From: Oligoflexus sp.
GTDB lineage: Bacteria > Bdellovibrionota_B > Oligoflexia > Oligoflexales > Oligoflexaceae
Assembly (NCBI GenBank): GCA_041736305.1
Contig: JBGSTX010000223.1
Span: 1 to 11,548, forward strand
Direction: 5' to 3'
DNA: 11,548 nt
Positions 191 through 11,548 of this stretch are shown here, piece by piece. Positions within the stretch are counted from its first letter, which is position 1. Every line of letters starts with the position of its first letter. Under the pieces are notes generated by a model. It made no database searches. It saw only the letters and a list, made by a program, of their open reading frames with translations, and was not told where the DNA came from. A program made the translations under genes and the position numbers.

Positions 191-1045
191 ATGAAGCTTC
201 GGTTTCTCGTCTATCTCTGGTTACTCATCACAGGGTTCCTGGCTCACCAATACATGGTTCTTCATGATCTCATCCCAGGTCCTGATTTCACTCAGCTCGT
301 CCTTTGCAAAAAGTTTAAGCTCTGCGACTACGGCTCGCCCGCTCCCGGCCGGCCTCTCAGCTACGCTCTCGGTTGGTTGGGTTTCAGTGTGATGGCGCTG
401 ACCAATGTCTACATTCTAAGAAAGAAAATGCTTTCCCTGCAGAAGCTAGGCAATCTGCAGTCTTGGTTGAACTGGCACATTTTCTTTGGAATGTTGGGTC
501 CGACCTTTATCGTCTTTCACTGCGATTTTAAGGTGGGAGGCATCGTCAGCATCAGCTTCTGGAGTATGATCGTTTCCTTCAGTTCGGGGATCATCGGACG
601 CTACTTCTATATGCAGCTGCTGCAAGGCAAAGGCCTGCTGAAGCGAGAGATCGAAGTCCTAGAGTCGAGCTTTGACAAGTACATGCAGGCGTCGGGCCAG
701 AGGATACAGCCGCAGGCTTTACTAGCCGCTAAGGCCTATGCCTTCATGATGGTCGGGGGTGGGCCTGGGGGCACAGTCCGTGGGAAGAGTATCTTAGGAT
801 TCCTCTACTTCTCGACCTTAGGCAGCGTCCGTAGCAGTTTTCAGCTACCTCCGACTCCCTGGCCTGAAGGACGACCCTTCCGCTTGAAGTTGAAAGAGTG
901 GGCTCTCTTGAGAAAACGGCTTATTTCGATGCATTACTTTCAAATGCTCTTCGGTTACTGGCGCACCTTCCATACGCCTTTTGCCGTCTGGATGTATATA
1001 GTTGCTGTAATTCACATCATTTCATCCCTCATTTTCAAAGTATAG
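191..1045 (+). CDS. Inner-membrane protein, probable diheme cytochrome b (ferric-reductase-like transmembrane domain)
   Basis: Several hydrophobic helices. Two carry His pairs 14 residues apart: WLNWH96IFFGMLGPTFIVFH110 and WRTFH261TPFAVWMYIVAVIH275. The gene sits in a multiheme cytochrome cluster. Confidence 0.75.
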   Translation: MKLRFLVYLWLLITGFLAHQYMVLHDLIPGPDFTQLVLCKKFKLCDYGSPAPGRPLSYALGWLGFSVMALTNVYILRKKMLSLQKLGNLQSWLNWHIFFGMLGPTFIVFHCDFKVGGIVSISFWSMIVSFSSGIIGRYFYMQLLQGKGLLKREIEVLESSFDKYMQASGQRIQPQALLAAKAYAFMMVGGGPGGTVRGKSILGFLYFSTLGSVRSSFQLPPTPWPEGRPFRLKLKEWALLRKRLISMHYFQMLFGYWRTFHTPFAVWMYIVAVIHIISSLIFKV

Positions 1046-1087
1046 AGCCGCGTTAATGCCGTGAATATCGCGGCTTAAGTTCGCGAC

Positions 1088-1115
1088 TCAAGTTTAGGGA
1101 TCGACGCGCCGATGG
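1088..1115 (+). promoter_or_regulatory. Candidate sigma28 (FliA)-type promoter
   Basis: TCAAGTTT-N12-GCCGATGG versus consensus TAAAGTTT-N11-GCCGATAA, in the intergenic gap before the oxidoreductase. Confidence 0.4.
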
Positions 1116-1146
1116 AAGAGTGTCAACTCTATATCGGAATCTTGCT

Positions 1147-2499
1147 ATGCTCATGAAAATCTATTATTTAATTTCTCAATCGACCTGGCTTTTCGGGCTG
1201 GGATTTCTCATATTTCTTGCCTGGTACGGAACCCGGAAGCGCACCACTCATTTGATCGAAGCGCAAAAGCAGTGGGATGACGCCGTCGCCAAGAAAATGC
1301 ATGAGCCGCTGTCCTTACATCCAGAAATTGATCCGACTCTTTGCGGTGGCTGCGGGGCCTGCGTAGCAGCTTGCCCAGAAGGTGAGATCATCAAACTGAT
1401 CAATCATCGGGCCGTCCTCGTTGAGCCGGGCAAGTGCGTAGGTCACGGGCAGTGCGAGACAGCTTGCCCATACGATGCGATTCAACTGGTTTTTGGGACT
1501 AAAACGCGCGGTATGGAACTGCCCAGGATCGATGGAAATTTTCAGACCAATGTGCCGGGTCTCTATATCTCTGGCGAACTCGGCGGCATGGGCCTCATAA
1601 TCAACGCCGTGAAGCAGGGTCGCCTCGCTGCCGAACATGCAGCGAAGACAGTCAATCCAGGCGTGCAGGCTCAGTTCGATGTGCTAGTCGTCGGTGCAGG
1701 ACCTGCCGGTCTTTCCGCGGCATTGGCCTGCGCGGCAGCGAAACTGAAATACGTCTGCATCGAGCAAAATAAGTTCGGTGGTACCATCTATAACTTCCCA
1801 AAGCAAAAAGTGGTTATGTCCCAGCCTCTTGAATTCGCTTTGATGGGTCGCTTTAAATTCAGTAAAAATAAAGTCTCTAAGGAAGAGCTGCTCGGACTCT
1901 GGGGTCACGTTCGTCAGAAGGCTGGACTGTCCGTCAAAGAAGAGTGCCGCTTCATTAATCTGCAGAAAAAAGGCAGTATTTTTGAAGTTGAGACATCACT
2001 CGGAACCATGACCGCGCAGAAGGTGATTCTAGCCATGGGCGTGAGAGGCACACCGCGTAAGCTCGGGCTTAAAAATGAAGAGCTGAGCAAGGTCACCTAC
2101 AATTTGCTCGACCCCGAGCAGTATCAGCAGCGCTGGATAGCCGTCGTTGGTGGCGGTAACGCTGGGGTAGAGGCCGCTCAGTATCTATGTAAGGTAGACC
2201 TTCGCAATAGGGTCTTCCTCTTGGTCCGCGGGCCGACTTTCGATCGCTGCAATCAGGAAAACCAGGATATTATTTTCGACTATCAAAAGAAGGGATTGGT
2301 CACGATCTGCTTCAATTCTTCCATAGAAGAGATTCACACTGACCATCTTATAGTCAAAAAAGACGATCAACTTTTGCGCTTGCAAAACGACTTTGTCTTC
2401 ATATTTGCAGGAGCCATCATGCCCTTCGCGTTTTTGAAGAGCATAGGAGTCATGATCGAGACGAAATTCGGTGAAGCTGTTAAAAAAGCTAGCAGCTAA
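1147..2499 (+). CDS. Membrane-anchored 4Fe-4S dicluster / FAD-dependent NAD(P)H oxidoreductase (TrxR/FNR-like fold, circularly permuted)
   Basis: N-terminal TM helix (WLFGLGFLIFLAWYG followed by TRKR); ferredoxin motifs CGGCGACVAACP and CVGHGQCETACP; FAD motif DVLVVGAGPAG; NAD(P)H motif VVGGGNAG...LLVRG; motif TNVPGLYISGE. The start is uncertain (GTG 1120, ATG 1147 or ATG 1153). Confidence 0.88.
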   Translation: MLMKIYYLISQSTWLFGLGFLIFLAWYGTRKRTTHLIEAQKQWDDAVAKKMHEPLSLHPEIDPTLCGGCGACVAACPEGEIIKLINHRAVLVEPGKCVGHGQCETACPYDAIQLVFGTKTRGMELPRIDGNFQTNVPGLYISGELGGMGLIINAVKQGRLAAEHAAKTVNPGVQAQFDVLVVGAGPAGLSAALACAAAKLKYVCIEQNKFGGTIYNFPKQKVVMSQPLEFALMGRFKFSKNKVSKEELLGLWGHVRQKAGLSVKEECRFINLQKKGSIFEVETSLGTMTAQKVILAMGVRGTPRKLGLKNEELSKVTYNLLDPEQYQQRWIAVVGGGNAGVEAAQYLCKVDLRNRVFLLVRGPTFDRCNQENQDIIFDYQKKGLVTICFNSSIEEIHTDHLIVKKDDQLLRLQNDFVFIFAGAIMPFAFLKSIGVMIETKFGEAVKKASS

Positions 2500-2510
2500 G
2501 GGGAATACAC

Positions 2511-2936
2511 TTGCAAAAGCCGCGTTCTACTATCGGGCTCTTCGTCCTGCTTCTGCTCTTCCTAGAAGCTTGCGGAGGCAATACACCAGGTGTTACCACG
2601 CAGGCTTTCAAAGACCCCAGCACCCACGACCATGCGCTCTTCACCCAGCCCTGCTCCGCTTGCCATGAATATCGACGCTTGCCGCCGGCGCCCGAACTGA
2701 ACCTCGGGGCTCCGGTCTCAATACTCCATGGACTAGGTGGCAACTGCGCGGAAGCAGGCTGTCACGCCTATGCTAAAGCCGCTCCCGTCTGGAAACCGGT
2801 ATTTTTCAATCACACTCCTTATCCAAGCACCTGCTGGGGTTGCCACACTGTGACGGGTGAGAAGGCCACCCACGCGGCTCAAGGCGAATGCTCGGCTTGC
2901 CACTCCTTCCCCAAAGGTTGGAAAGGTTTGAAATAA
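2511..2936 (+). CDS. Tetraheme c-type cytochrome lipoprotein
   Basis: TTG start after AAGGGGA. Signal peptide with lipobox LEA-C21. Heme motifs CSACH, CAEAGCH (CX4CH), CWGCH and CSACH, with spare His residues available as distal ligands. Confidence 0.85.
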   Translation: MQKPRSTIGLFVLLLLFLEACGGNTPGVTTQAFKDPSTHDHALFTQPCSACHEYRRLPPAPELNLGAPVSILHGLGGNCAEAGCHAYAKAAPVWKPVFFNHTPYPSTCWGCHTVTGEKATHAAQGECSACHSFPKGWKGLK

Positions 2937-2997
2937 GCCAACCTTTTCCAAGCATCCAAGCAGCTAAGCTCAGTTTCCGACTCTCGGCATTCGGTGC

Positions 2998-3026
2998 TTG
3001 GGCCCTAGCTTTTAGCCTGCTACAAT
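2998..3026 (+). promoter_or_regulatory. Candidate sigma70 promoter for the porin and 33-heme cytochrome genes
   Basis: TTGGGC (2998-3003), a 17-nt spacer containing the extended TG (3018-3019), then TACAAT (3021-3026), 34 nt upstream of the porin start. Confidence 0.55.
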
Positions 3027-3060
3027 AAACTCTACGCATTTTTCAAAATGAGATAAAAGA

Positions 3061-4431
3061 TTGAAGATAATTTCTTTAGCAATAGAGGCTTCATTCTGTC
3101 TTTGTATCTGCTTCTTTGCTTTTGCTTTTGCCGCTGAAAGAGCCGAAGCAGTGGTGTCGCGAGGGCAGGTCCGAGCTGGGTACTACTCGCGCGGCGTCGA
3201 GTTCAAAGAGCCAGTGGCCGGCGAGACCAAGAACGACGAGCGCGTGATCTCAACCCAAGCTAAATTGGATGTCTCGGATTTCAACTCAACCGACGACAAA
3301 TTCCTCCTGGACGTACGCGATAAATACGATAGCTATGGCAAGCTCGAGCGCCAGAACCTACAGCTGAGCTCTTATAATCGGGTTATATTACGTACTGCAG
3401 CTTATCAGCGACCTTGGGAAGCCAATCGCCTCTACTTCACCGTGGGGCGTTTCTCGCTGCCCGAAGCCAACGTCATGGCCCACGATGGCGTTGATTTTGG
3501 CTATCGCTATAGTAGGAGCACGCGCATCGGCCTCTTCGGAGGGCAAGGCCCCGAAGATGTGCTCACTCCTCTCTATGTGGATCCCAATACTACCCAAGTG
3601 AAAAACGCTCAGCTGGGTTCTTACGTGGCTTATGAGAAAAAAGATGGAGTGGAAGACAGCACCTACATGACGAATGCTCTGGCATTGGCGCCTAGTTACT
3701 ACATCACGGATGCCGATAGCCATACCTATTTCTACCATCAAACCATGATGACCTTTACGCCGACGCATCGCGTGATGGCGATCGTGCATCAGGACCTTTC
3801 GCCAGCATCGAGTCTGCGCCGAGCCTATGCCTCCTATACCTATTTTAGCGAACGCTACCGAGGCACAGCCGCTCTCCAGCAGACCAACACCGAAGATTAT
3901 CTCATCAAGCAAATCGTTCAAGATACACTAGCGCCGAGTGCGGTGCGCAGTCTCGATCTCGATTTCCGTCAGCGGCTCAGCCCAACTTTGTCTCTCGACT
4001 ACAGTGCTAGCTATGGGACCCGCTCGGTCGATGGCAAAACGCGCACCGAGCTCGCCTTCGGGGTTTTGCTACCTAAGCTTTTTCTCGATACCGGTTCGGC
4101 TAAAGCCCAGCTCGGGGTACGTAATAACTTTGTCAGCAACGATAAATTCCTACGGGTCGGCTACGATTACTGGAGCAAGTCCTTCGGCGGTGGCTTCTCT
4201 CATCTGATCGTCAACGAAGAATATGCTAGCGGCGAAAAGAACAACCGTCAGATCACAACTCTAGATGGCGGATTTTTTCTCAGCGAAGAAATTCGAGGCT
4301 CGGTCGGGCTGCAAAGAGAACAGGATAATTCGGTCAGCGCTAACGCCTTATTTTTGATGCTAGGCTACCGCTTCGGATCCGGCTCGGTGTCTAGCGTTCC
4401 CAGCAAAACCCCTCGCTTCGAGAGTATTTGA
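3061..4431 (+). CDS. Outer-membrane beta-barrel protein (putative porin of a porin-cytochrome complex)
   Basis: Signal peptide probably ending AEA. Many amphipathic strands with aromatic residues (LYFTVGRF, DGVDFGYRY, LSLDYSASYG, FLRVGYDYW, LFLMLGYRF). No heme motifs. It lies between two cytochrome genes. Confidence 0.8.
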   Translation: MKIISLAIEASFCLCICFFAFAFAAERAEAVVSRGQVRAGYYSRGVEFKEPVAGETKNDERVISTQAKLDVSDFNSTDDKFLLDVRDKYDSYGKLERQNLQLSSYNRVILRTAAYQRPWEANRLYFTVGRFSLPEANVMAHDGVDFGYRYSRSTRIGLFGGQGPEDVLTPLYVDPNTTQVKNAQLGSYVAYEKKDGVEDSTYMTNALALAPSYYITDADSHTYFYHQTMMTFTPTHRVMAIVHQDLSPASSLRRAYASYTYFSERYRGTAALQQTNTEDYLIKQIVQDTLAPSAVRSLDLDFRQRLSPTLSLDYSASYGTRSVDGKTRTELAFGVLLPKLFLDTGSAKAQLGVRNNFVSNDKFLRVGYDYWSKSFGGGFSHLIVNEEYASGEKNNRQITTLDGGFFLSEEIRGSVGLQREQDNSVSANALFLMLGYRFGSGSVSSVPSKTPRFESI

Positions 4432-7221
4432 TTGAGCAAGCTCCTGAGACGATTTTGGATTTATATTCTGCTTCTGCTGCCATTCATGGCAGCTGCTCAG
4501 AGCCAGAAGGGAAACTTCGAAGGCCTCCTGAATAAACTTCTCGCGCCCGGTCCACTTATTCTGGGTCATGAAAATCTCGAGCACAAAGACTGCCTCAAGT
4601 GCCACGAGCCCGGCGGTGGTATCCCGAACCAGCTCTGTTCAGACTGCCACAAAGAGATTAAAGCCCATGTGAACGAGAAAGACCACTTCCATGGTCTAAT
4701 GGACGGTAAACCCTGCATTGAATGTCACCAGGATCACAAGGGCCGGAGTTTTGATTCTCTCAAGTTCGACACGAAGAGTTTCGAGCACGATAAGACTGGC
4801 TTCGAATTAGATGGAGCGCACATTAAGGTCGAATGTGCGAAGTGCCATACCGACACCCGAAAATCAAAGCCGATTCGCCAGAACGAAACTCGATACTTCG
4901 GTACAGTGAACTCCTGTAATAAATGCCATGTGAAAGATGATATTCACTTCTTTGAAGACAAGTTCAAAGCTAAAGAGTGTAGCACGTGCCACAGTACTGT
5001 TTCATGGAAAGATGCGATTCGCTTCGATCACAAGAAAGAAACCGGCTACGAGCTGATAGGGGCTCATGCCAAGCATTCTTGCAACAAGTGCCATGTGAGT
5101 GAAGGCAAAGACAATATTAAATACACCTGGCCCAAGCTGAAGACGCAGCAGTGTCTCAGCTGCCACAAAGATCAGCACGGCGACAATATGAGTCCCAAAT
5201 TTCGCGGCGGCAACTGCACGAGCTGCCATAGCCAAGACGCTTGGAAAATCCCCGACTTTGACCACTCGATTACGAGCTTCAATCTGCGGGCGAAGCACGC
5301 GCAGGTGCAATGCGTCGACTGTCATAAGCAGGGGCCAGCTACAAGCGGCAAGGGCCCAGGCTTCTATCGCTGGCGTGGTCTGCAAAAAACTTGCAATAGC
5401 TGCCACGCCGACTACCATGGCTACGGGCGCGAGCAGAGCGCGAAACTGAATGGGCCCCTTCAGGCCTGCGAAACCTGTCACACTGATTTAGGCTGGAAGC
5501 TCGAACTCCGTTTTGATCACAACACCCAAGCCGATTTCCCTATCACCGGCAAACATCGCGAAAATGCCTGCTTCGACTGTCACAGGCCCCAGTCGAATGA
5601 TAAGAAAGCGGTAGTTCCGAACATACTTCGGCGCTATGAATTCCCAACGCTCGAAACGAAGACCTGCGAAACTTGTCATAAATCATCTCACAACGCGGCC
5701 TTTCATAAAAAATTCAAAGGTGTCCCCTGCTCGCAGTGTCATACGACTGAAGGCTGGAAGCTGTCTTCTATGCAAACGCAGATGACGACGGACCGGGCCT
5801 TTCACGATAAGACTCGTTTCCCTCTGACGGGCGAGCATAAAGTGCAGCCTTGTAAAGACTGCCATATGCGCGATGGCAAAGAGAATTTCAAGTTCCCCAA
5901 CGCCGAGAAGAATTTCTGCGTCAACTGCCATGTTTCCGTGCATAAGAAGCAATTTAGCGAAAAGACTCAGGAGCAGCCCTGCTCCAAGTGTCACAGCACG
6001 AATAATTTTACCCAGCGGCTGCCTTTCGACCACGGCGCAACCACGGGATTTAAGATCACCGGAAAACACCAGAAATTTGAAAATCAGTGCGTGAAGTGCC
6101 ATGAGCCGACCAAGGAAAAGTTAGCGACTAAACCACCAAAAGTCATGCATCAGTTCAATTTTGATGAGCGAAAGGATCCCAATTTCTGCTCCTTCTGCCA
6201 CGTGACGGTTCACAAAGATCAGTTCAACCCCGCGACGCAGAAGCGCTCCTGCGGCGACTGTCATAATACCTCAGGCTTCCAGAAGCTCTCAGAGTTCGAT
6301 CATGATCAAACGCGCTTCAAGCTTACCGGGGCCCATGAGGACATCGGCAAGGATTGCAAGCAGTGTCACAAGCCAGGTGACATCACCTTGCCGACGAAGC
6401 CACCGCGGAAGGGTCATACCTTCATGTTTGAAGGGCAGAACCGCGGCTTCTGTGAAGAGTGCCATACCAACGAGCATAAGGATATGTTCCGCAAGGAATT
6501 CTCGAGTAGGCCTTGCGTGAGCTGTCACACGACGGAAACTTTTCAGAAACGCAAAGAATTCAATCACGAGGAGACCTCGTTTGAAATCAAAGGCAAGCAC
6601 AAGCAGGTGAAATGCGTTGAATGCCACAAGCCAACGCCGGCTCGCTACAAGCAGGAGCCACAAAATAGAAAGGGCGACTATCAGTTCCCGGAATTTAAGA
6701 CCAAAAACTGCATGACTTGCCATCGCGATGTCCACAACGGGTCGAACGGCTCTAACTGTAAAAAATGCCATAACGAAAGCGGCTGGAAATCAACGGGAGA
6801 CTATCACAAGGACTTTCTCCTCGAAGGGGTGCATCTCCAGATCGATTGCAAAGAATGCCATGTGAATGACCGCATCCTGCACGGATCGAGTCGGGAGTGC
6901 AGTCTCTGCCACGCGAAGGAAGATCCGCATAACGGACAGCTACTTCCCTGTCAGGAATGTCATACACAGAATTTCTGGAACCAGACAACTTTCGACCATA
7001 ATGTAACGAGATTCCCGCTGTGGGGAGCCCATCGGATCACCGATTGCCGCGCTTGTCATAATCAGGGTGTCTATCAGGGTCTGCCGACAGAGTGCCGTAG
7101 TTGTCATCTGCGAGATGCGGCGGGCGTCACGTCTCCTGATCATTCCCTGCCTAATTATTTTCGCTGTGAGCAGTGTCACACGCAGTATAACTTCCCGGGA
7201 GCTACACCTGGTCTCCCTTGA
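4432..7221 (+). CDS. Secreted/periplasmic multiheme cytochrome c, 33 CxxCH motifs
   Basis: Signal peptide (AAA-Q). I counted 33 CxxCH motifs by hand, from CLKCH (4591) to CEQCH (ends 7179). The TTG start immediately follows the porin stop codon. Confidence 0.96.
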   Translation: MSKLLRRFWIYILLLLPFMAAAQSQKGNFEGLLNKLLAPGPLILGHENLEHKDCLKCHEPGGGIPNQLCSDCHKEIKAHVNEKDHFHGLMDGKPCIECHQDHKGRSFDSLKFDTKSFEHDKTGFELDGAHIKVECAKCHTDTRKSKPIRQNETRYFGTVNSCNKCHVKDDIHFFEDKFKAKECSTCHSTVSWKDAIRFDHKKETGYELIGAHAKHSCNKCHVSEGKDNIKYTWPKLKTQQCLSCHKDQHGDNMSPKFRGGNCTSCHSQDAWKIPDFDHSITSFNLRAKHAQVQCVDCHKQGPATSGKGPGFYRWRGLQKTCNSCHADYHGYGREQSAKLNGPLQACETCHTDLGWKLELRFDHNTQADFPITGKHRENACFDCHRPQSNDKKAVVPNILRRYEFPTLETKTCETCHKSSHNAAFHKKFKGVPCSQCHTTEGWKLSSMQTQMTTDRAFHDKTRFPLTGEHKVQPCKDCHMRDGKENFKFPNAEKNFCVNCHVSVHKKQFSEKTQEQPCSKCHSTNNFTQRLPFDHGATTGFKITGKHQKFENQCVKCHEPTKEKLATKPPKVMHQFNFDERKDPNFCSFCHVTVHKDQFNPATQKRSCGDCHNTSGFQKLSEFDHDQTRFKLTGAHEDIGKDCKQCHKPGDITLPTKPPRKGHTFMFEGQNRGFCEECHTNEHKDMFRKEFSSRPCVSCHTTETFQKRKEFNHEETSFEIKGKHKQVKCVECHKPTPARYKQEPQNRKGDYQFPEFKTKNCMTCHRDVHNGSNGSNCKKCHNESGWKSTGDYHKDFLLEGVHLQIDCKECHVNDRILHGSSRECSLCHAKEDPHNGQLLPCQECHTQNFWNQTTFDHNVTRFPLWGAHRITDCRACHNQGVYQGLPTECRSCHLRDAAGVTSPDHSLPNYFRCEQCHTQYNFPGATPGLP
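4780..7179 (+). repeat. Ten tandem triheme protein modules (about 65-95 aa each) following an N-terminal triheme unit
   Basis: Recurring pattern F(D/E/N)H-x2-3-T-x-F-x-(L/I)-x-G-x-H...CxxCH...CxxCH-x3-4-H...CxxCH-x4-(W/F), with some degeneracy. Confidence 0.9.
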
Positions 7222-7242
7222 CTCGTGATCAGGGCTTTTCTT
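7216..7242 (+). terminator. Weak possible intrinsic terminator overlapping the cytochrome stop codon
   Basis: CCTTGA (7216-7221) pairs with TCAGGG (7229-7234) in a 6-bp stem with one G-U pair, followed by CTTTTCTT. Confidence 0.25.
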
Positions 7243-7289
7243 CGGCTGCAGATTCTGCGACGATAAGCAGCTTCAGCTGGAGGAAGCTT

Positions 7290-8192
7290 ATGAGCGTAGT
7301 TCTGCAGCAATTGACCGAACTTCTCAATCTTGACGCCATTGAGACCAATGTTTTTCTCGGCAAGAGTCAGGACCTAGGATTCGGCTCACTCTTTGGTGGC
7401 CAAGTCCTTGGCCAAGCATTAGTAGCCGCCGGGCGCACCGTCGAGCCTTCCCGCTCTTGTCATTCGCTTCACGGCTACTTTTTACGTGCTGGCAGTCCCT
7501 CTGAGCCTATCTACTACGAGGTCGACTTAATTCGTAGTGGCAAAAGCTTCTCGACTCGTCGCGTCGTCGCGAAACAGAGAGGCCTTGCTATCTTCAGCAT
7601 GTCCAGTTCATTTCAGGTCTTGGAGAAGGGTTACGAGCATCAAAGTGCGATGCCCATCGTCCCCCGACCGGAAACTCTCACTTCTGAACTTGAAATGGCT
7701 CGCCAGCATCGTGACAAGATTCCCTCTGCTGTACGCGAAAAGATGACCGCCGATCGCGCGATCGATATCAGACCCGTTGAGAGCGGCGACCCCTTTGCAC
7801 CCAGCCCAAGGCCAGCTCTTAAACATAGTTGGCTGCGAGCGATTGCAAGGATAGCTGACGATCCTATCTTGCATCAGGCTATGCTCGCTTATGCTTCCGA
7901 CTTTGGGCTGGCATCGACCTCACTCCTGCCCCACGGTGTGACCTTCTTTCAGTATTCAACCCAGGTGGCAAGTCTCGATCACAGTATGTGGTTTCACCGA
8001 CCCTTTCGCATAGATGAATGGCTGCTTTATACGAAGGATAGTCCGACGGCAAACGGAGCGCGCGGCTTCAATCGTGGGCAAATATTTAGCGAAAATGGGG
8101 ACCTCGTGGTATCGGTAGCGCAGGAGGCGTTGGTCCGGCGCTTGCGGCCTAAAACCGATGCGCCCGACAAGACCGGGGGTTTGGTCAACTGA
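7290..8192 (+). CDS. tesB: Acyl-CoA thioesterase II
   Basis: Motifs LFGGQVLGQALVAA, HSLHGYFLRAG, GKSFSTRRVVA, LAYASD, ASLDHSMWFHRPF and VAQEAL. GGAGG (7279-7283) precedes ATG 7290, which fits better than the TTG at 7218. Confidence 0.95.
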   Translation: MSVVLQQLTELLNLDAIETNVFLGKSQDLGFGSLFGGQVLGQALVAAGRTVEPSRSCHSLHGYFLRAGSPSEPIYYEVDLIRSGKSFSTRRVVAKQRGLAIFSMSSSFQVLEKGYEHQSAMPIVPRPETLTSELEMARQHRDKIPSAVREKMTADRAIDIRPVESGDPFAPSPRPALKHSWLRAIARIADDPILHQAMLAYASDFGLASTSLLPHGVTFFQYSTQVASLDHSMWFHRPFRIDEWLLYTKDSPTANGARGFNRGQIFSENGDLVVSVAQEALVRRLRPKTDAPDKTGGLVN

Positions 8193-8198
8193 TGAGAC

Positions 8199-9398
8199 CT
8201 ACGCGGCGAGAATTTTCCAGATTTCTCCTGGATGCTCAGGGTTTTCAATAAAGAGAGCCGCCTGCCCATCGGTGTCGGTAGCGACGAAGGCTCCTTCATA
8301 GTGCGGAAGCACGATCGTCCCTCTATCGGTATGCAATTCGATCTCACCCATGATCGCGATCGAATCCATGAAGTGGGGGCGTGGACTGGCATTGTCCTGC
8401 CAGTGGCTTTCCTCTGGCTGCGGGCCGGCTGACGCTACGAAAGTTCGCAGTATTTCCAGCTGCTGTTCCATCAGTCGCAACTGCTGTTCCATAATTCTTG
8501 TAATATCGGGCGAAGCTGGCATGGTGCGCGGCTGGCCAGCACTCATGGGGGGTTCTCCTTCGGAAGCTTGATGGGGTGCAAGCAAGAGTTCGCTTTCTAC
8601 CCAAGATTTTACAGTGTCGAGGAACTTCTGGCGGTCATCGAGCATCGTGAACAAGTGGTCGGTTTGGGGCCAGCGGAGAACCCGGATCGCCGGTCCGAAT
8701 TTCTGGGCGCCCAGCATCGCCGTAAACTGCTTTATGTGGGAAAAGTAGGCCGCAAAGCCTCCCGTGTAGATCACCAGCATTTTAATGCCCCGAGCCAGCA
8801 TTTGGTTCAGCCCCTCTCTGACCTCTTCGGGGGAAGGATAATTAGGCTCGAAGTAATCCCGCACTGATTCCAAAGACTCGCTCATGTCGCGCCTGAACGT
8901 GTGTTTTATACGGCGCAGCCAGCGCTGCAGACTGCTCACTCGTCGGAAGAAATAAAGGACGCGATGCGCAAGAGTAGGGTAAACGAAGGAGTCGACCATC
9001 ACGATACCCTTTATGCGAGCGTCGCTGCGGGCATAATAATAAGCGTCGACGGCACTCGAGCAGAGTCCGATAAGAAGTACGCGCGTAATACCATAGTCGC
9101 GAGCTAGTACTTCGAGAGCATCAGCGATGTCCAGGTTGCTTCTGTCCTGTATCGCGATCTTTTCACCGCTGTCATCGCTATCGCCGAGCCGAGAAAGATC
9201 AAAGCGTAGAGTCGTGACCCCTATGCTGGCTAGCGATTCGGCGACTTCTACATTGGCGCGAAAGGGTCCACAACGGTTTGAAATGCCCGTATTCCAAAGC
9301 AATGCACCGAGATTCGCCTTCTGACCTTCTCGTCCTTTTTCATGAACGACGCCGATAAGATGATCTTGGCGGCCAAAACGAAGGGCGCGCTTTTGCAT
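8199..9398 (-). CDS. Alpha/beta-hydrolase-fold protein (exosortase-system hydrolase-1-like) with a C-terminal extension of about 125 aa
   Basis: Motifs LRFDLSRLGDS, nucleophile elbow IGLCSSA and His motif TDHLFT. GGAGGG (9412-9407) lies upstream of the ATG. Confidence 0.85.
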   Translation of the reverse strand: MQKRALRFGRQDHLIGVVHEKGREGQKANLGALLWNTGISNRCGPFRANVEVAESLASIGVTTLRFDLSRLGDSDDSGEKIAIQDRSNLDIADALEVLARDYGITRVLLIGLCSSAVDAYYYARSDARIKGIVMVDSFVYPTLAHRVLYFFRRVSSLQRWLRRIKHTFRRDMSESLESVRDYFEPNYPSPEEVREGLNQMLARGIKMLVIYTGGFAAYFSHIKQFTAMLGAQKFGPAIRVLRWPQTDHLFTMLDDRQKFLDTVKSWVESELLLAPHQASEGEPPMSAGQPRTMPASPDITRIMEQQLRLMEQQLEILRTFVASAGPQPEESHWQDNASPRPHFMDSIAIMGEIELHTDRGTIVLPHYEGAFVATDTDGQAALFIENPEHPGEIWKILAA

Positions 9399-9402
9399 TT
9401 TT

Positions 9403-10197
9403 TTAGCCCTCCATCATGTTTTTTATGAGGCGAAGATGCTTGCTCGGAAAAGCTCTTCGCTTGACGAAGCGGTCGTCGAGCCAGTGCATGGCTTCTTCGA
9501 CCAGGTGCTCGCTTAATTTTACCTGCGTCGCCTGGCTTGAACGCAGCTGCTCGGCGAGTTCTGGGGTTCTAGTCTCGCTCGTTAGCAGGTGTATTTTCCT
9601 ACAGCTGACCTGAGTGTCGCTAAGCTTGATGGCAGCGATTTCCTGCTTGAATGCTGCAGAAAGGGGAAAGCCCCAGCATTGGTCCGGGCGCTGCGTGCTT
9701 TGTGCAAACGGGGGTTCGAGGGGATCGCGACGGAGCATGAGCTGGTGCGAGCTTTCGAGCTCTTTGAGATAAGCAGCTCCGTCAGTCAAAGGGTCCCAGA
9801 GTACAAGTAGCTGCGGTCCGATTTTGCCGCTCGCTCGCATAGCAAGAGTGGCTCCAAGGCGGGTGCCGAAGAGAGAAACCTGTGTAAAACCCGTTTTTTC
9901 CTTGAGCGCATTCGCAGCAGCGCAGATGTCTGCTTCCCACAGTTTTAAGGAAGCTTCGGCGCTAGCTCCATCCGAATCTCCCGTAGCTGTATAGTCAAAG
10001 CGAAGCACGGCATAGCCTAGCTCAGCCAGTTCTCGTCCAAGCTGCACATGAGTTTGATAGCTGCGCATCATTTCCTGCGGTGCCGGATAGCAGATAACGA
10101 TAGCTTCCTTGCGCTGCTGAGTCTCGGGTGCTTGAAAGAGGCCGAAGAGCGCCCGCTCGGCCGATGGGAAGTAGAAAGGCTCCGTGCGTCGTGTCAT
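9403..10197 (-). CDS. Alpha/beta-hydrolase-fold protein (exosortase-system hydrolase-2-like), probably non-catalytic
   Basis: Motifs LRFDYTATGDSDG, elbow FGTRLGA (Arg at the nucleophile position) and LVLWDP. ATGA overlap with the NRPS stop (10194-10197). Confidence 0.85.
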   Translation of the reverse strand: MTRRTEPFYFPSAERALFGLFQAPETQQRKEAIVICYPAPQEMMRSYQTHVQLGRELAELGYAVLRFDYTATGDSDGASAEASLKLWEADICAAANALKEKTGFTQVSLFGTRLGATLAMRASGKIGPQLLVLWDPLTDGAAYLKELESSHQLMLRRDPLEPPFAQSTQRPDQCWGFPLSAAFKQEIAAIKLSDTQVSCRKIHLLTSETRTPELAEQLRSSQATQVKLSEHLVEEAMHWLDDRFVKRRAFPSKHLRLIKNMMEG

Positions 10198-11548
10198 CGC
10201 CTATCTCCTGGGCTGCGGGCTAGAGGCTGCTCTGGGACATACAGAGCCGCGAGTTGAGCAAGACTGAGCAGGAGGAGATCCCGAATCTTCAGATTCATCG
10301 CAAGCTCTTCCTGACAGCGATGCAGTACTTTGATGGCTAAGAGAGAGTGACCACCAAGGTCAAAAAAGTTATCGCTTGCCTTGACGCTTTTCAAATCGAG
10401 CAGTTCGCAGAAAATAGCAGCGATTTTGCATTCAAGCGGATTGAGCCTCTCGACGATAGCCAGAGGCTGCACTTCTTGCCGTACGCTGAAGGGAGAAGGA
10501 AGAGCTTTGCTATCAACTTTTCCACTGCCCGTGAGAGGGAAACTATCGAGGACCAGCAAGTGCTGCGGTAGCATGTAGCGCGGCAATGAATGAGAAAGAT
10601 GCTGAGAGATAGCCGCCAAATCGAGTTTCTGAGCAGGCTTGAGGACGGCATAGGCGACGAGACGCTGGTCGCCTGGACTCAGCTCGCGCACCAGGCACAC
10701 GGCTTGCTGCACAGCGCTATGGGTCATCATAGAGGATTCAATTTCGCCGAGTTCAATGCGGAAGCCTCGCAGCTTAACTTGCTTATCGCGGCGACTGATA
10801 TATTCCAGTCGACCATCAGCTCGCAGACGTGCAAGGTCACCAGTGTCGTACATGAGGGCTTCAGCCTGGAAAGGATGCGGGATAAAACGATCACTGGTAA
10901 GATCAGGACGGCCCCGATAACCGCGTGCAAGAGCCGGACCTGCAAGATAGAGCTGCCCTATAGCACCTTGCGGAAGAGCCTGGCCCCGCGCATCGAGGAT
11001 ATAAGCTTCATAGGAAGGCAGCACGCTGCCTATACAGATAGGAGCTTCGGGATCGACGATGTGCTCGGCTGTGGCCCAGACTGTCGCTTCGGTAGGTCCG
11101 TAAACGTTCCAGAGCTGTCCCACGCGCGGAATAAGTTCACGTGCAAGATCGCGGCTGAGCGCTTCCCCACCGCTCAGTGCCCAGAGCGAACTCTTCCCTT
11201 GCCAACCACTAGCGAGGAGCAGTCGCCAGGTGGCGGGCGTCGCCTGCAGAAGATCGATAGCTTCCGACTGCAGAGCTTCGCTGATGTAAGCACCGTCGGT
11301 GATTCGCTCCGCTTCGACGAGAACTACTGTACCTGAGAGAGTGAGAGTCGAAAATATTTCGAGAACAGAGATGTCAAAAGAAATAGTCGTGATCGCGAGA
11401 GTCCGCAGACCTATGGGAAAAGCCAATTTTTCGCGGATGGCCTGCAAAAAGTAGACGGCAGCCCGATGCGAGATCTCCACACCCTTCGGTTTGCCGGTCG
11501 AACCAGAGGTGTAGATGATGTAGGCGAGATCTGCAGGATCAGGGCCTT
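10194..11548 (-). CDS. NRPS C-terminal module, 5'-truncated: adenylation domain (Gly predicted) plus terminal peptidyl carrier protein
   Basis: The frame stays open past 11480 to the edge and includes A3 LAYIIYTSGSTGKPKGV. Also FDIS, NVYGPTE, YDTGDL, QVKLRGFRIELGEIE and GSGKVD. PCP motif DNFFDLGGHSLLA. The gene stops with no TE or reductase domain. Confidence 0.95.
   Translation of the reverse strand, partial: GPDPADLAYIIYTSGSTGKPKGVEISHRAAVYFLQAIREKLAFPIGLRTLAITTISFDISVLEIFSTLTLSGTVVLVEAERITDGAYISEALQSEAIDLLQATPATWRLLLASGWQGKSSLWALSGGEALSRDLARELIPRVGQLWNVYGPTEATVWATAEHIVDPEAPICIGSVLPSYEAYILDARGQALPQGAIGQLYLAGPALARGYRGRPDLTSDRFIPHPFQAEALMYDTGDLARLRADGRLEYISRRDKQVKLRGFRIELGEIESSMMTHSAVQQAVCLVRELSPGDQRLVAYAVLKPAQKLDLAAISQHLSHSLPRYMLPQHLLVLDSFPLTGSGKVDSKALPSPFSVRQEVQPLAIVERLNPLECKIAAIFCELLDLKSVKASDNFFDLGGHSLLAIKVLHRCQEELAMNLKIRDLLLLSLAQLAALYVPEQPLARSPGDRR

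Follow-up and report, generated by a model that had tools for sequence, protein, structure and literature searches.

A PCC3-type gene cluster of Oligoflexus sp. with a conserved ferredoxin-flavoprotein partner: a putative NAD(P)H-fed route across the cell envelope

Introduction

How could reducing power leave the cytoplasm of a Gram-negative cell and reach its surface without passing through quinones? Known outer-membrane cytochrome conduits plug into the quinone pool, and the question is raised here by five adjacent genes (g1 to g5) of Oligoflexus sp., a bacterium of the Bdellovibrionota, which encode an inner-membrane protein, a ferredoxin-flavoprotein, two multiheme cytochromes and an outer-membrane barrel. 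The window, as the term is used below, is the whole 11,548-bp contig (JBGSTX010000223.1) of a genome of 5.02 Mb in 392 contigs (92.7% complete); the contig begins just 5′ of g1, so the view upstream of g1 ends there.

Judged by the published descriptions of its proteins, this cluster is the Bdellovibrionota (Oligoflexia) version of PCC3, a known type of porin–cytochrome gene cluster, and g2, the flavoprotein, is a conserved partner of g1, the inner-membrane protein. On balance, we think it probable that the five genes form a PCC3-type trans-envelope conduit with a dedicated flavoprotein at its cytoplasmic entry. Relative to the literature searched, the flavoprotein partner and its implications are new; the cluster is otherwise of the known PCC3 kind.

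The five genes

Five open reading frames (ORFs) lie on the + strand between positions 191 and 7221, with intergenic gaps of 74 nucleotides (nt) between g1 and g2, 11 between g2 and g3, 124 between g3 and g4, and 0 between g4 and g5:

191..1045, +: g1, 284 amino acids (aa), inner-membrane protein of the PCC3 'IMP' type, predicted to be a di-heme b protein
1120..2499, +: g2, 459 aa, membrane-anchored ferredoxin-flavoprotein (Pfam Pyr_redox_3, 4.2e-37, and Fer4 families)
2511..2936, +: g3, 141 aa, tetraheme lipoprotein cytochrome c (three CxxCH and one CxxxxCH)
3061..4431, +: g4, 456 aa, predicted 22-strand outer-membrane beta-barrel (AlphaFold2 (AF2) model, Foldseek)
4432..7221, +: g5, 929 aa, secreted 33-heme cytochrome c of 11 c7-type triheme modules

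An earlier sequence-only reading of the window had named five same-strand genes of these types, and both the ORFs at these coordinates and the motifs within them are confirmed. That reading had also made its case depend on the flavoprotein accompanying the other genes in other genomes. There it held up, in four separate sets of data: well-flanked loci, whole genomes, natural fusions and a distant branch of the family.

Conservation of the g1–g2 pair

When species-representative genomes were scanned with a g1 alignment, 80 loci came up, almost all of them from Bdellovibrionota (Oligoflexus, Pseudobacteriovorax, Bdellovibrionales, Bacteriovoracales). One of them (L081) held no g1 ORF and was dropped, leaving 79 loci to be counted, in whose DNA in view a relative of g2 was found 65 times, g4 63 times and g5 63 times. 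Where at least 8 kb was available on both sides of g1 (35 loci), g2 stands no more than 10 kb from g1 in 34, and g2, g4 and g5 are present together in 33. With the exception of L078, the 14 loci that lack g2 break off near g1 on one or both sides. Of the 65 g2 genes, 55 are on the + strand and 10 on the opposite one, and 43 lie no further than 300 nt from g1. Because gene order and strand vary in this way, the linkage of g1 and g2 is more than inherited synteny.

The phyletic distribution gives the same picture. Among 131 genomes of the phylum set, g2 (E ≤ 1e-60) was found in 30 and g1 (profile, E ≤ 1e-10) in 30, with both present in 29 and neither in 100, so that the pattern agrees in 129; related genomes among the 131 are not independent of one another, and no statistic is given. 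Both mismatches fall at contig ends. In one genome (G071), g2 starts 650 nt from the start of its contig, where g1 would be cut off, and in the other (G070), g1 sits on a 4.3-kb contig that ends 65 nt past it.

The two proteins also occur as a single chain. Three natural g2–g1 fusions (P0268, P0269 and P0270; 744–749 aa) consist of the anchor, the Fer4 domain and the flavoprotein, followed by a g1-like domain. Residues 39–447 of P0268 align with residues 54–447 of g2 at 35% identity (E 6e-70), and residues 483–740 match the g1 family profile with an hhalign probability of 99.4% (E 8.9e-22); both W-x3-H-x13-H motifs of g1 are kept in the fusions. In a further protein, P0238 (562 aa), a Fer4 dicluster domain that includes PF13247 is fused to a g1-like domain. 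A fourth candidate g2–g1 fusion, L079, was rejected, as its overlapping long frames are two adjacent genes in a high-GC contig. That contig, of Krumholzibacteriia and thus of another phylum, carries at 8061–16191 a flavoprotein, an IMP, two cytochromes, one with 20 hemes and one with 22, and a probable barrel of 572 aa whose last residue is F.

A more distant branch was reached by aligning 36 relatives at most 30% identical to g1 and scanning metagenome contigs. The best 80 of 574 confirmed relatives were taken; they belong to one branch and are not dereplicated. The IMP is present in 80 of these 80 loci. Where no less than 1.5 kb lies downstream (45 loci), the IMP gene is followed by a multiheme cytochrome gene 25 times, by a g2-like gene 19 times and by another gene once. 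A g2-like gene is found in 27 of the 45, and in 10 of the 10 loci with at least 7.5 kb downstream. Two gene orders recur. In order A, the IMP is followed by a 20-heme cytochrome, a cytochrome of 19–73 hemes, a barrel of about 550 aa and the flavoprotein, and in order B, by the flavoprotein and then the cytochromes. The upper end of the heme range is seen at L099 (5291–10645), where a 1784-aa cytochrome with 73 CxxCH motifs lies between the 20-heme cytochrome and the barrel.

A complex prediction for g2 and g1, with both supplied as alignments, gave scores of 0.15 and 0.22 (mark, 0.32), which speak neither for nor against a contact.

The inner-membrane protein g1

No Pfam family (E ≤ 0.01) and no NCBIfam model matches g1. 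The family to which it belongs is large: 1817 cluster representatives were retrieved at E ≤ 1e-3, 805 at 1e-10 and 62 at 1e-30. Three motifs stand out:

464..520, +: W92-x3-H96-x13-H110, third membrane helix; H96 and H110 invariant
584..598, +: SGxxG (S132–G136), fourth membrane helix; G133 and G136 invariant, S132 nearly so
959..1015, +: W257-x3-H261-x13-H275, fifth membrane helix; W257, H261 and H275 invariant

These statements rest on an alignment of 81 relatives with identities as low as 22%; the residues that never vary in it are His, Gly and Trp, and no Cys is conserved. The AF2 model of g1 (pLDDT 94.1) shows five long membrane helices, the third, fourth and fifth of which carry the motifs; a helical insert of some 95 residues separates helices four and five.

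On this evidence, g1 is predicted to bind two hemes b. Among the upper rows of a fold search independent of Foldseek are a designed di-heme bundle (Z 10.1), the E. coli superoxide oxidase CybB (9.4), STEAP4 (9.2; 155 aligned residues, root-mean-square deviation 5.2), Dcytb (8.3) and cytochrome b561 (8.0); DUOX1 appears at Z 6.8. The two-heme cytochromes among these rows are compatible with a di-heme protein and no proof of one, such values being common for helical bundles. The g1 profile gave no significant match to the solved NOX, STEAP or MsrQ sequences.

The fusions also bear on topology. Because they join the C-terminus of a cytoplasmic flavoprotein to the first membrane helix, the N-terminus of g1 should be cytoplasmic. 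On this topology, the insert (residues 145–240) and the stretch 77–88 at the end of the second helix would be cytoplasmic as well, and helices three and five would both run from inside to outside. The 13 Lys and Arg residues of the insert agree with such a placement, and the insert is a candidate docking surface for g2. This topology would put the pair H96 and H261 towards the cytoplasm and the pair H110 and H275 towards the periplasm, as expected of a stack of two bis-His hemes.

In a protein atlas queried with g1, the second-nearest cluster (score 0.93; 460 members, 256 aa, no common Pfam) bears the automatic name 'Pyridine nucleotide-disulfide oxidoreductase family protein'. The name may stem from fused or neighbouring flavoproteins and is a lead only.

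The flavoprotein g2

Three parts can be told apart in g2:

1168..1227, +: N-terminal hydrophobic anchor, residues ~17–36, followed by R-K-R (hydropathy scan)
1318..1494, +: two-cluster ferredoxin domain, C75–C85 and C106/H109/C112/C116 (motifs, Fer4)
1675..2457, +: FAD/NAD(P)H two-dinucleotide-binding domain (GAGPAG at 192, GGGNAG at 344, R370, R376)

Pfam places Fer4 at residues 67–125 and Pyr_redox_3/Pyr_redox_2 at 186–446, and the mean column identity in an alignment of 52 sequences is 54%. The first cluster motif, CxxCxxCxxxCP (C75–C85), is canonical; the second, CxxHxxCxxxCP, has a His in place of a Cys (C106, H109, C112, C116). Both, the His included, occur in 60 of 60 g2 relatives longer than 400 aa, and their residues are invariant among the 52 aligned sequences. 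The second motif is compatible with a His-ligated [4Fe–4S] or [3Fe–4S] cluster. A His-ligated surface cluster is the exit cluster in [NiFe] hydrogenases, and by analogy that of g2 would fit the task of handing electrons to heme.

In the dinucleotide-binding domain, G192, G194, G197 and G346 are invariant and R370 and R376 nearly so. The Arg residues that follow the second dinucleotide motif of thioredoxin reductases sit where the 2′-phosphate of NADPH binds; as R370 and R376 are placed in the same way, NADPH is favoured as the donor of g2 and is probably its substrate. The only CxxC pairs of g2 lie at 75–81, within the ferredoxin domain, and the flavin domain has none; therefore g2 is no disulfide reductase of the thioredoxin-reductase type.

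Among solved structures, g2 is most closely related to the YpdA/Bdr entries 7a76_A (7.7e-42) and 7a7b_A (4.9e-41), which we take to be NADPH-dependent enzymes, and next come thioredoxin reductases and ferredoxin–NADP+ reductases of the thioredoxin-reductase type. With YpdA/Bdr and these ferredoxin–NADP+ reductases (7a7b, 7a76, 3ab1), g2 shares the two-dinucleotide fold and the lack of a CxxC in the flavin domain. Unlike YpdA/Bdr, it adds a membrane anchor and a two-cluster ferredoxin domain, and unlike thioredoxin reductase, its NADPH domain carries no redox-active CxxC.

The cytochromes g3 and g5 and the barrel g4

The 929 residues of g5 hold 33 CxxCH motifs (28.2 residues per heme), which form 11 triplets repeating every 66–94 residues, and 41 His outside the heme motifs. 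Pfam Cytochrome_C7 covers eight stretches (1.3e-34), the signal peptide has no lipobox, and a comparison with PDB sequences gave 0 matches. Relatives of g5 have 21–36 hemes, mostly multiples of three. A conserved element surrounds the first heme:

4543..4605, +: N-terminal first-heme element of g5, A38-P-G-x-L...H...L-E...CxxCH

Of the cytochromes in the Bdellovibrionota loci, 45 of 56 g5-like ones have this element, as against 0 of 56 others. In the distant branch, it occurs in 29 of the 37 cytochromes of 17–21 hemes that follow the IMP and in 12 of 45 others, some of which are over-extended ORF calls. It is thus probable that g5 is the ortholog of the IMP-adjacent cytochrome and that the first-heme element is its contact with g1.

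The gene for g4 adjoins that for g5 in nearly all loci. The barrel itself matches no Pfam or NCBIfam model, and its AF2 model (pLDDT 89.6) consists of a signal helix (residues 2–24) and 22 beta-strands. Foldseek retrieved only outer-membrane barrels (369 matches at E ≤ 0.001, best E 3.5e-10, probability 1.00), among them OccAB4, the FimD usher and a chitoporin at E of about 1e-10.

With its hydrophobic N-terminus, a lipobox-type Cys (Cys21), three CxxCH and one CxxxxCH, g3 resembles a small lipoprotein cytochrome. An alignment of 13 sequences shows no variation at C21, the four heme motifs, H41, H73 or H101 and next to none at H121, giving four candidate distal His residues (H41, H73, H101, H121). 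The N-terminal signature of g3 (a hydrophobic stretch, Cys, three or four residues, then P-x-V) is shared by 36 of 56 companion cytochromes, which have 4–36 hemes, and by 0 of 54 g5-like proteins. By analogy with MtrC and OmcB, g3 would be located outside the cell.

Two side observations concern this group. The second heme site of g3 (residues 79–85; 2745–2765) is CxxxxCH through a two-residue in-frame insertion, whereas 12 of 12 aligned orthologs have CxxCH there; the cause may be either a genuine variant or an error in the assembly. Many companions (e.g., L054:7160–9937 and L069:7157–9937) have an atypical lipobox-like end (e.g., F-Q-N-C), after which comes a conserved G-x-x-Q-P-x-V-like element; this may be a signal for sorting or docking.

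Clusters of the Bdellovibrionales type contain further genes. A CcsA-type (PF01578) and a ResB (PF05140) gene lie on the opposite strand between g1 and g4, and a thioredoxin-like protein is encoded after g5 (L029:10834–14291, L024:2521–6166, L024:10380–10916 and similar loci); such embedded genes fit a module for very heme-rich proteins. They also bring to mind another role for g1 and g2, outside the wire, namely the supply of reductant to the periplasm for cytochrome c maturation or redox repair, as by DsbD/CcdA or MsrQ, the genes being clustered since giant cytochromes need reductant. The likeness of g2 to thioredoxin reductase fits this explanation too. However, g1 has no conserved Cys, the window cluster carries no maturation genes, and in the distant branch a cytochrome with the conserved N-terminal element stands directly after the IMP. 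We regard a reductant supply as very improbable, and a conduit fed by g2 as the better account of the pair.

Comparison with PCC3 clusters

He et al. (2017) described the PCC3 IMP as a protein of about 300 aa with five transmembrane helices, of which the third and fifth carry W-x3-H-x13-H and the fourth SGxxG (PMC5566968). Its partners in the cluster are a porin and two cytochromes, one termed 'periplasmic' with a median of 21 hemes and one termed 'extracellular' with a median of 34 (PMC5566968). The composition that the sequence-only reading had given for PCC3 agrees with this: a periplasmic multiheme cytochrome, a porin, an extracellular multiheme cytochrome and an inner-membrane protein. 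In Gallionellaceae, the 'periplasmic' cytochrome has 21, 24 or 27 hemes and the 'extracellular' one 10–35 (PMC9900912). PCC3 porins have up to 42 predicted transmembrane regions, and the reported carriers are mostly Proteobacteria (PMC5566968).

The window cluster is like PCC3 in three respects. First, g1 shows every published signature of the IMP (284 aa, motifs, helices). Second, g5 is very heme-rich and secreted, with a low residue-to-heme ratio and a heme count that is a multiple of three. Third, the barrel g4 and a second cytochrome of variable heme count stand in the same cluster. We also note four differences. The four hemes of g3 lie below the published median of 34 and the Gallionellaceae range of the second cytochrome; g3 may have the same role, the window copy being small. 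The barrel is smaller, with 22 predicted strands rather than up to 42 predicted transmembrane regions. A fifth gene, g2, is conserved here, whereas the published cluster consists of four genes and a quinone link. Finally, the host is of the Oligoflexia type and not one of the Proteobacteria that make up most of the reported carriers.

The accessible parts of the PCC3 accounts (PMC5566968, PMC9900912, the Sideroxydans CL21 preprint and PMC8788666) each list four genes and mention no flavoprotein, and the open-access literature searched holds no published link between PCC3 or porin–cytochrome clusters and such a flavoprotein. A flavoprotein does, however, adjoin a PCC3 cluster in Sideroxydans lithotrophicus ES-1. 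The first cluster of this strain comprises Slit_0867 (porin), Slit_0868 (17 hemes), Slit_0869 (21 hemes) and Slit_0870 (IMP) (PMC8788666), and next to it lies Slit_0866, annotated as an FAD oxidoreductase; the resulting order is the mirror image of order A of the distant branch. Five detected peptides of Slit_0866 match g2 at residues 123–129, 231–244, 302–309, 314–324 and 441–449, as aligned by eye. In proteome data, Slit_0866 is significantly above its Fe(II)-citrate level on fresh and aged magnetite at late time points (+2.35 and +2.55 log2). The protein appears in no main text of the open-access literature searched.

A related published arrangement concerns PCC4. In its subgroup II, an IMP gene with the same His motifs is preceded by a gene for an Fe–S cluster protein (pfam13247), or the two are annotated as one fusion (PMC5566968). 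P0238 is such an Fe–S/IMP fusion. The accessible description of PCC4 subgroup II, in contrast to the cluster studied here, includes no flavin or NAD(P)H domain and no extracellular cytochrome.

Comparison with other electron-transfer systems

In NOX, ferric reductases, STEAP and Fre–MsrQ, electrons pass from NAD(P)H to a flavin, then to a stack of two hemes b, whose His ligands come in pairs spaced 13 residues apart on two parallel helices, and on to an acceptor outside. The path from g2 to g1 would follow the same logic. The parts differ in several ways: g1 has no match to the Pfam ferric-reductase domain; g2 is Pyr_redox_3/thioredoxin-reductase-like with Fer4 and has no FNR-type domain; two Fe–S clusters are interposed; the fusions are flavoprotein-first; and the acceptor is a multiheme cytochrome. 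The likeness to the ferric reductase superfamily therefore looks like convergence, with no membership implied.

As in MtrCAB/CymA and the Geobacter porin–cytochrome complexes, a cytochrome and an outer-membrane barrel are encoded by adjacent genes together with a lipoprotein cytochrome. Unlike in MtrCAB, the barrel has 22 rather than 26 strands, and unlike in both MtrCAB and Geobacter, the cluster holds no quinol dehydrogenase of the CymA, ImcH or CbcL type. For the decaheme families MtrA/DmsE and GSU2203, g5 scores below the cut-offs (TIGR03508, 71.6 vs. 192.2; NF041028, 54.1 vs. 325), and the score for MtrC/OmcA is below its cut-off as well (TIGR03507, 36.8 vs. 209.3); because of these scores no protein of the cluster is assigned to an Mtr or Geobacter family.

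The 'nanowire' cytochromes of Geobacter, such as GSU1996, are polymers of c7-type triheme domains. Like them, g5 consists of tandem c7-type triheme modules in an elongated heme chain; unlike them, it has 11 modules rather than 4, and it scores 16.4 against the TIGR04257 cut-off of 40.

Proposed electron path and its direction

The path that these features suggest is as follows. Anchored in the inner membrane by its N-terminal helix, g2 would face the cytoplasm and take a hydride from NAD(P)H onto FAD. It would relay single electrons through two [4Fe–4S] clusters, the second with the conserved His ligand, to the cytoplasm-side heme b of g1 (H96/H261), from which they would cross the membrane to the periplasm-side heme b (H110/H275). 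The electrons would then enter the conserved N-terminal heme of the g5 wire, which may span the periplasm, threaded into or docked at the g4 barrel, and would exit to g3 and/or an external acceptor. Such a path would bypass quinones.

Outward flow is favoured over inward flow on thermodynamic grounds, because it runs downhill both in redox potential, starting from NAD(P)H at about −320 mV, and with the membrane potential, which is negative on the cytoplasmic side. Accordingly, the role of the system would be to dispose of reducing power or to deliver it, in the manner of NOX and ferric reductases, with no energy conserved. Candidate acceptors are Fe(III), Mn(IV), humics and O2.

The sequence-only reading had allowed flow in either direction, and its inward branch does not stand up well to these energetics. 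In an uptake system, the conduit would draw electrons from a donor outside the cell, be it Fe(II), a mineral, a cathode or another cell acting as partner, and g1 and g2 would reduce NAD(P)+. Electrons from donors at about 0 V would have to reach −320 mV and pass from the positive to the negative side, both uphill, with no coupling device visible; moreover, the Bdellovibrionota are not known as lithotrophs. What speaks for uptake comes from iron-oxidising bacteria, in which PCC3 has been discussed as a candidate iron oxidase (PMC5566968, PMC9900912, Sideroxydans CL21 preprint), and from the greater abundance of Slit_0866 on magnetite, which also counts in its favour although it is ambiguous as to direction. 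However, both ES-1 PCC3 clusters are down on Fe(II) relative to thiosulfate, and the authors state that neither appears to be involved in Fe(II) oxidation under their conditions (PMC8788666), a result that points outward too. We consider inward uptake quite improbable and an outward, reducing conduit the preferred reading.

Points against the proposal and the quinone-linked alternative

Several observations weigh against an NAD(P)H-fed conduit built on a fixed g1–g2 pair. The pairing is not strictly one to one: L078 has g1 alone, L072 has g1 and g2 without g4 or g5, and six genomes of one family carry two copies of g2 and one of g1. The second g2 copies examined (3 of 3) sit with g4 and g5, two of them also with g3, and have no g1-type gene beside them. 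In the distant branch, 18 of the 45 loci lack a g2-like gene, though most of those contigs are short, and the second ES-1 cluster (Slit_1446–1449), which has an IMP, is flanked by an HD hydrolase (Slit_1445) and an aldolase (Slit_1450), with no adjacent flavoprotein. As to g1, Foldseek of its model against the PDB gave 0 matches at E ≤ 0.001, its profile found nothing significant among PDB sequences (best E 0.033, a designed protein), and the fold-search Z values, at most 10.1, are in the range that helical bundles attain by chance. The substrate assignment of g2 is weakened by its score of 145.7 against the YpdA model TIGR04018, whose cut-off is 339.9, and g3 has only four hemes.

Two of the modules without g1 (L162:4453–10673 and L163:4440–10681) consist of a flavoprotein, a 4-heme lipoprotein, a barrel and a 36-heme cytochrome; the third (L164:1–3859), on a cut 5.8-kb contig, has no 4-heme gene and 10 cytochrome hemes in view. 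On our assumption, the components of such modules may be shared in trans.

These gaps in the pairing bear on the alternative that PCC3 is quinone-linked, with g1 as a quinol- or quinone-reactive cytochrome b and g2 as an accessory or regulatory redox protein. The quinone link is the proposal of He et al. (2017) themselves, who reasoned from the cytochrome b-like His motifs that the IMP binds two hemes b and links to the quinone pool (PMC5566968). Clusters without an adjacent flavoprotein or without an adjacent g1 are in keeping with it, as is a 2025 paper which, in its accessible part, reports a ubiquinone cofactor in MsrQ, there termed a membrane-bound flavohemoprotein; g1, too, may hold a quinone site. 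On the other hand, near-perfect co-occurrence and covalent fusion of g1 and g2 are hard to explain for an accessory protein, and no quinone-binding family or motif was detected in g1 with Pfam and NCBIfam. We therefore judge the quinone-linked form unlikely, and continue to prefer g2 as the electron entry of the conduit.

Neighbouring genes

Downstream of the cluster, an acyl-CoA thioesterase II gene (tesB-like, g6; 7218–8192, +; NF007817 7.5e-99, below cut-off) overlaps the end of g5 by 4 nt and is probably co-transcribed with it here. It was rejected as a sixth member, as it accompanies the cluster in only 5 of the 35 well-flanked loci, all of the Oligoflexus type. The − strand from 8199 to 11546 encodes two alpha/beta hydrolases resembling exosortase-A-associated hydrolases 1 and 2 (TIGR03100 8.7e-22 and TIGR03101 1.2e-30, both below cut-off) and, beside them, the 3′ part of an adenylation and carrier-protein gene that runs off the contig.

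Implications

More broadly, we propose tentatively, as a serious possibility that falls somewhat short of even, that the PCC3-type clusters of many phyla are quinone-independent, NAD(P)H-powered trans-envelope reductases. They would represent a convergent, modular re-invention of the NOX/ferric-reductase scheme, in which a thioredoxin-reductase-like flavoprotein passes electrons through Fe–S clusters to two hemes b, extended by a wire of 20–70 hemes through an outer-membrane barrel.

PCC3 has been drawn as quinone-linked for nearly a decade without a test. A flavoprotein of the NAD(P)H type at its inner end would alter the predicted direction (outward) and the energetics (dissipative), and with them the likely physiology of a cluster that is used as a marker of 'iron oxidation' in genome surveys. 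The pair g1 and g2, or its natural single-chain fusion, offers a small unit with which to study how cytoplasmic reducing power exits Gram-negative cells without quinones.

The finding would also extend such conduits to the Bdellovibrionota, a phylum that is not associated with extracellular electron transfer in the accessible parts of what the literature search returned. If the proposal is true, these mostly aerobic and often predatory bacteria would deliver cytoplasmic reducing power to their cell surface, with possible uses in reductive iron or manganese acquisition, in extracellular superoxide production or in action on prey.

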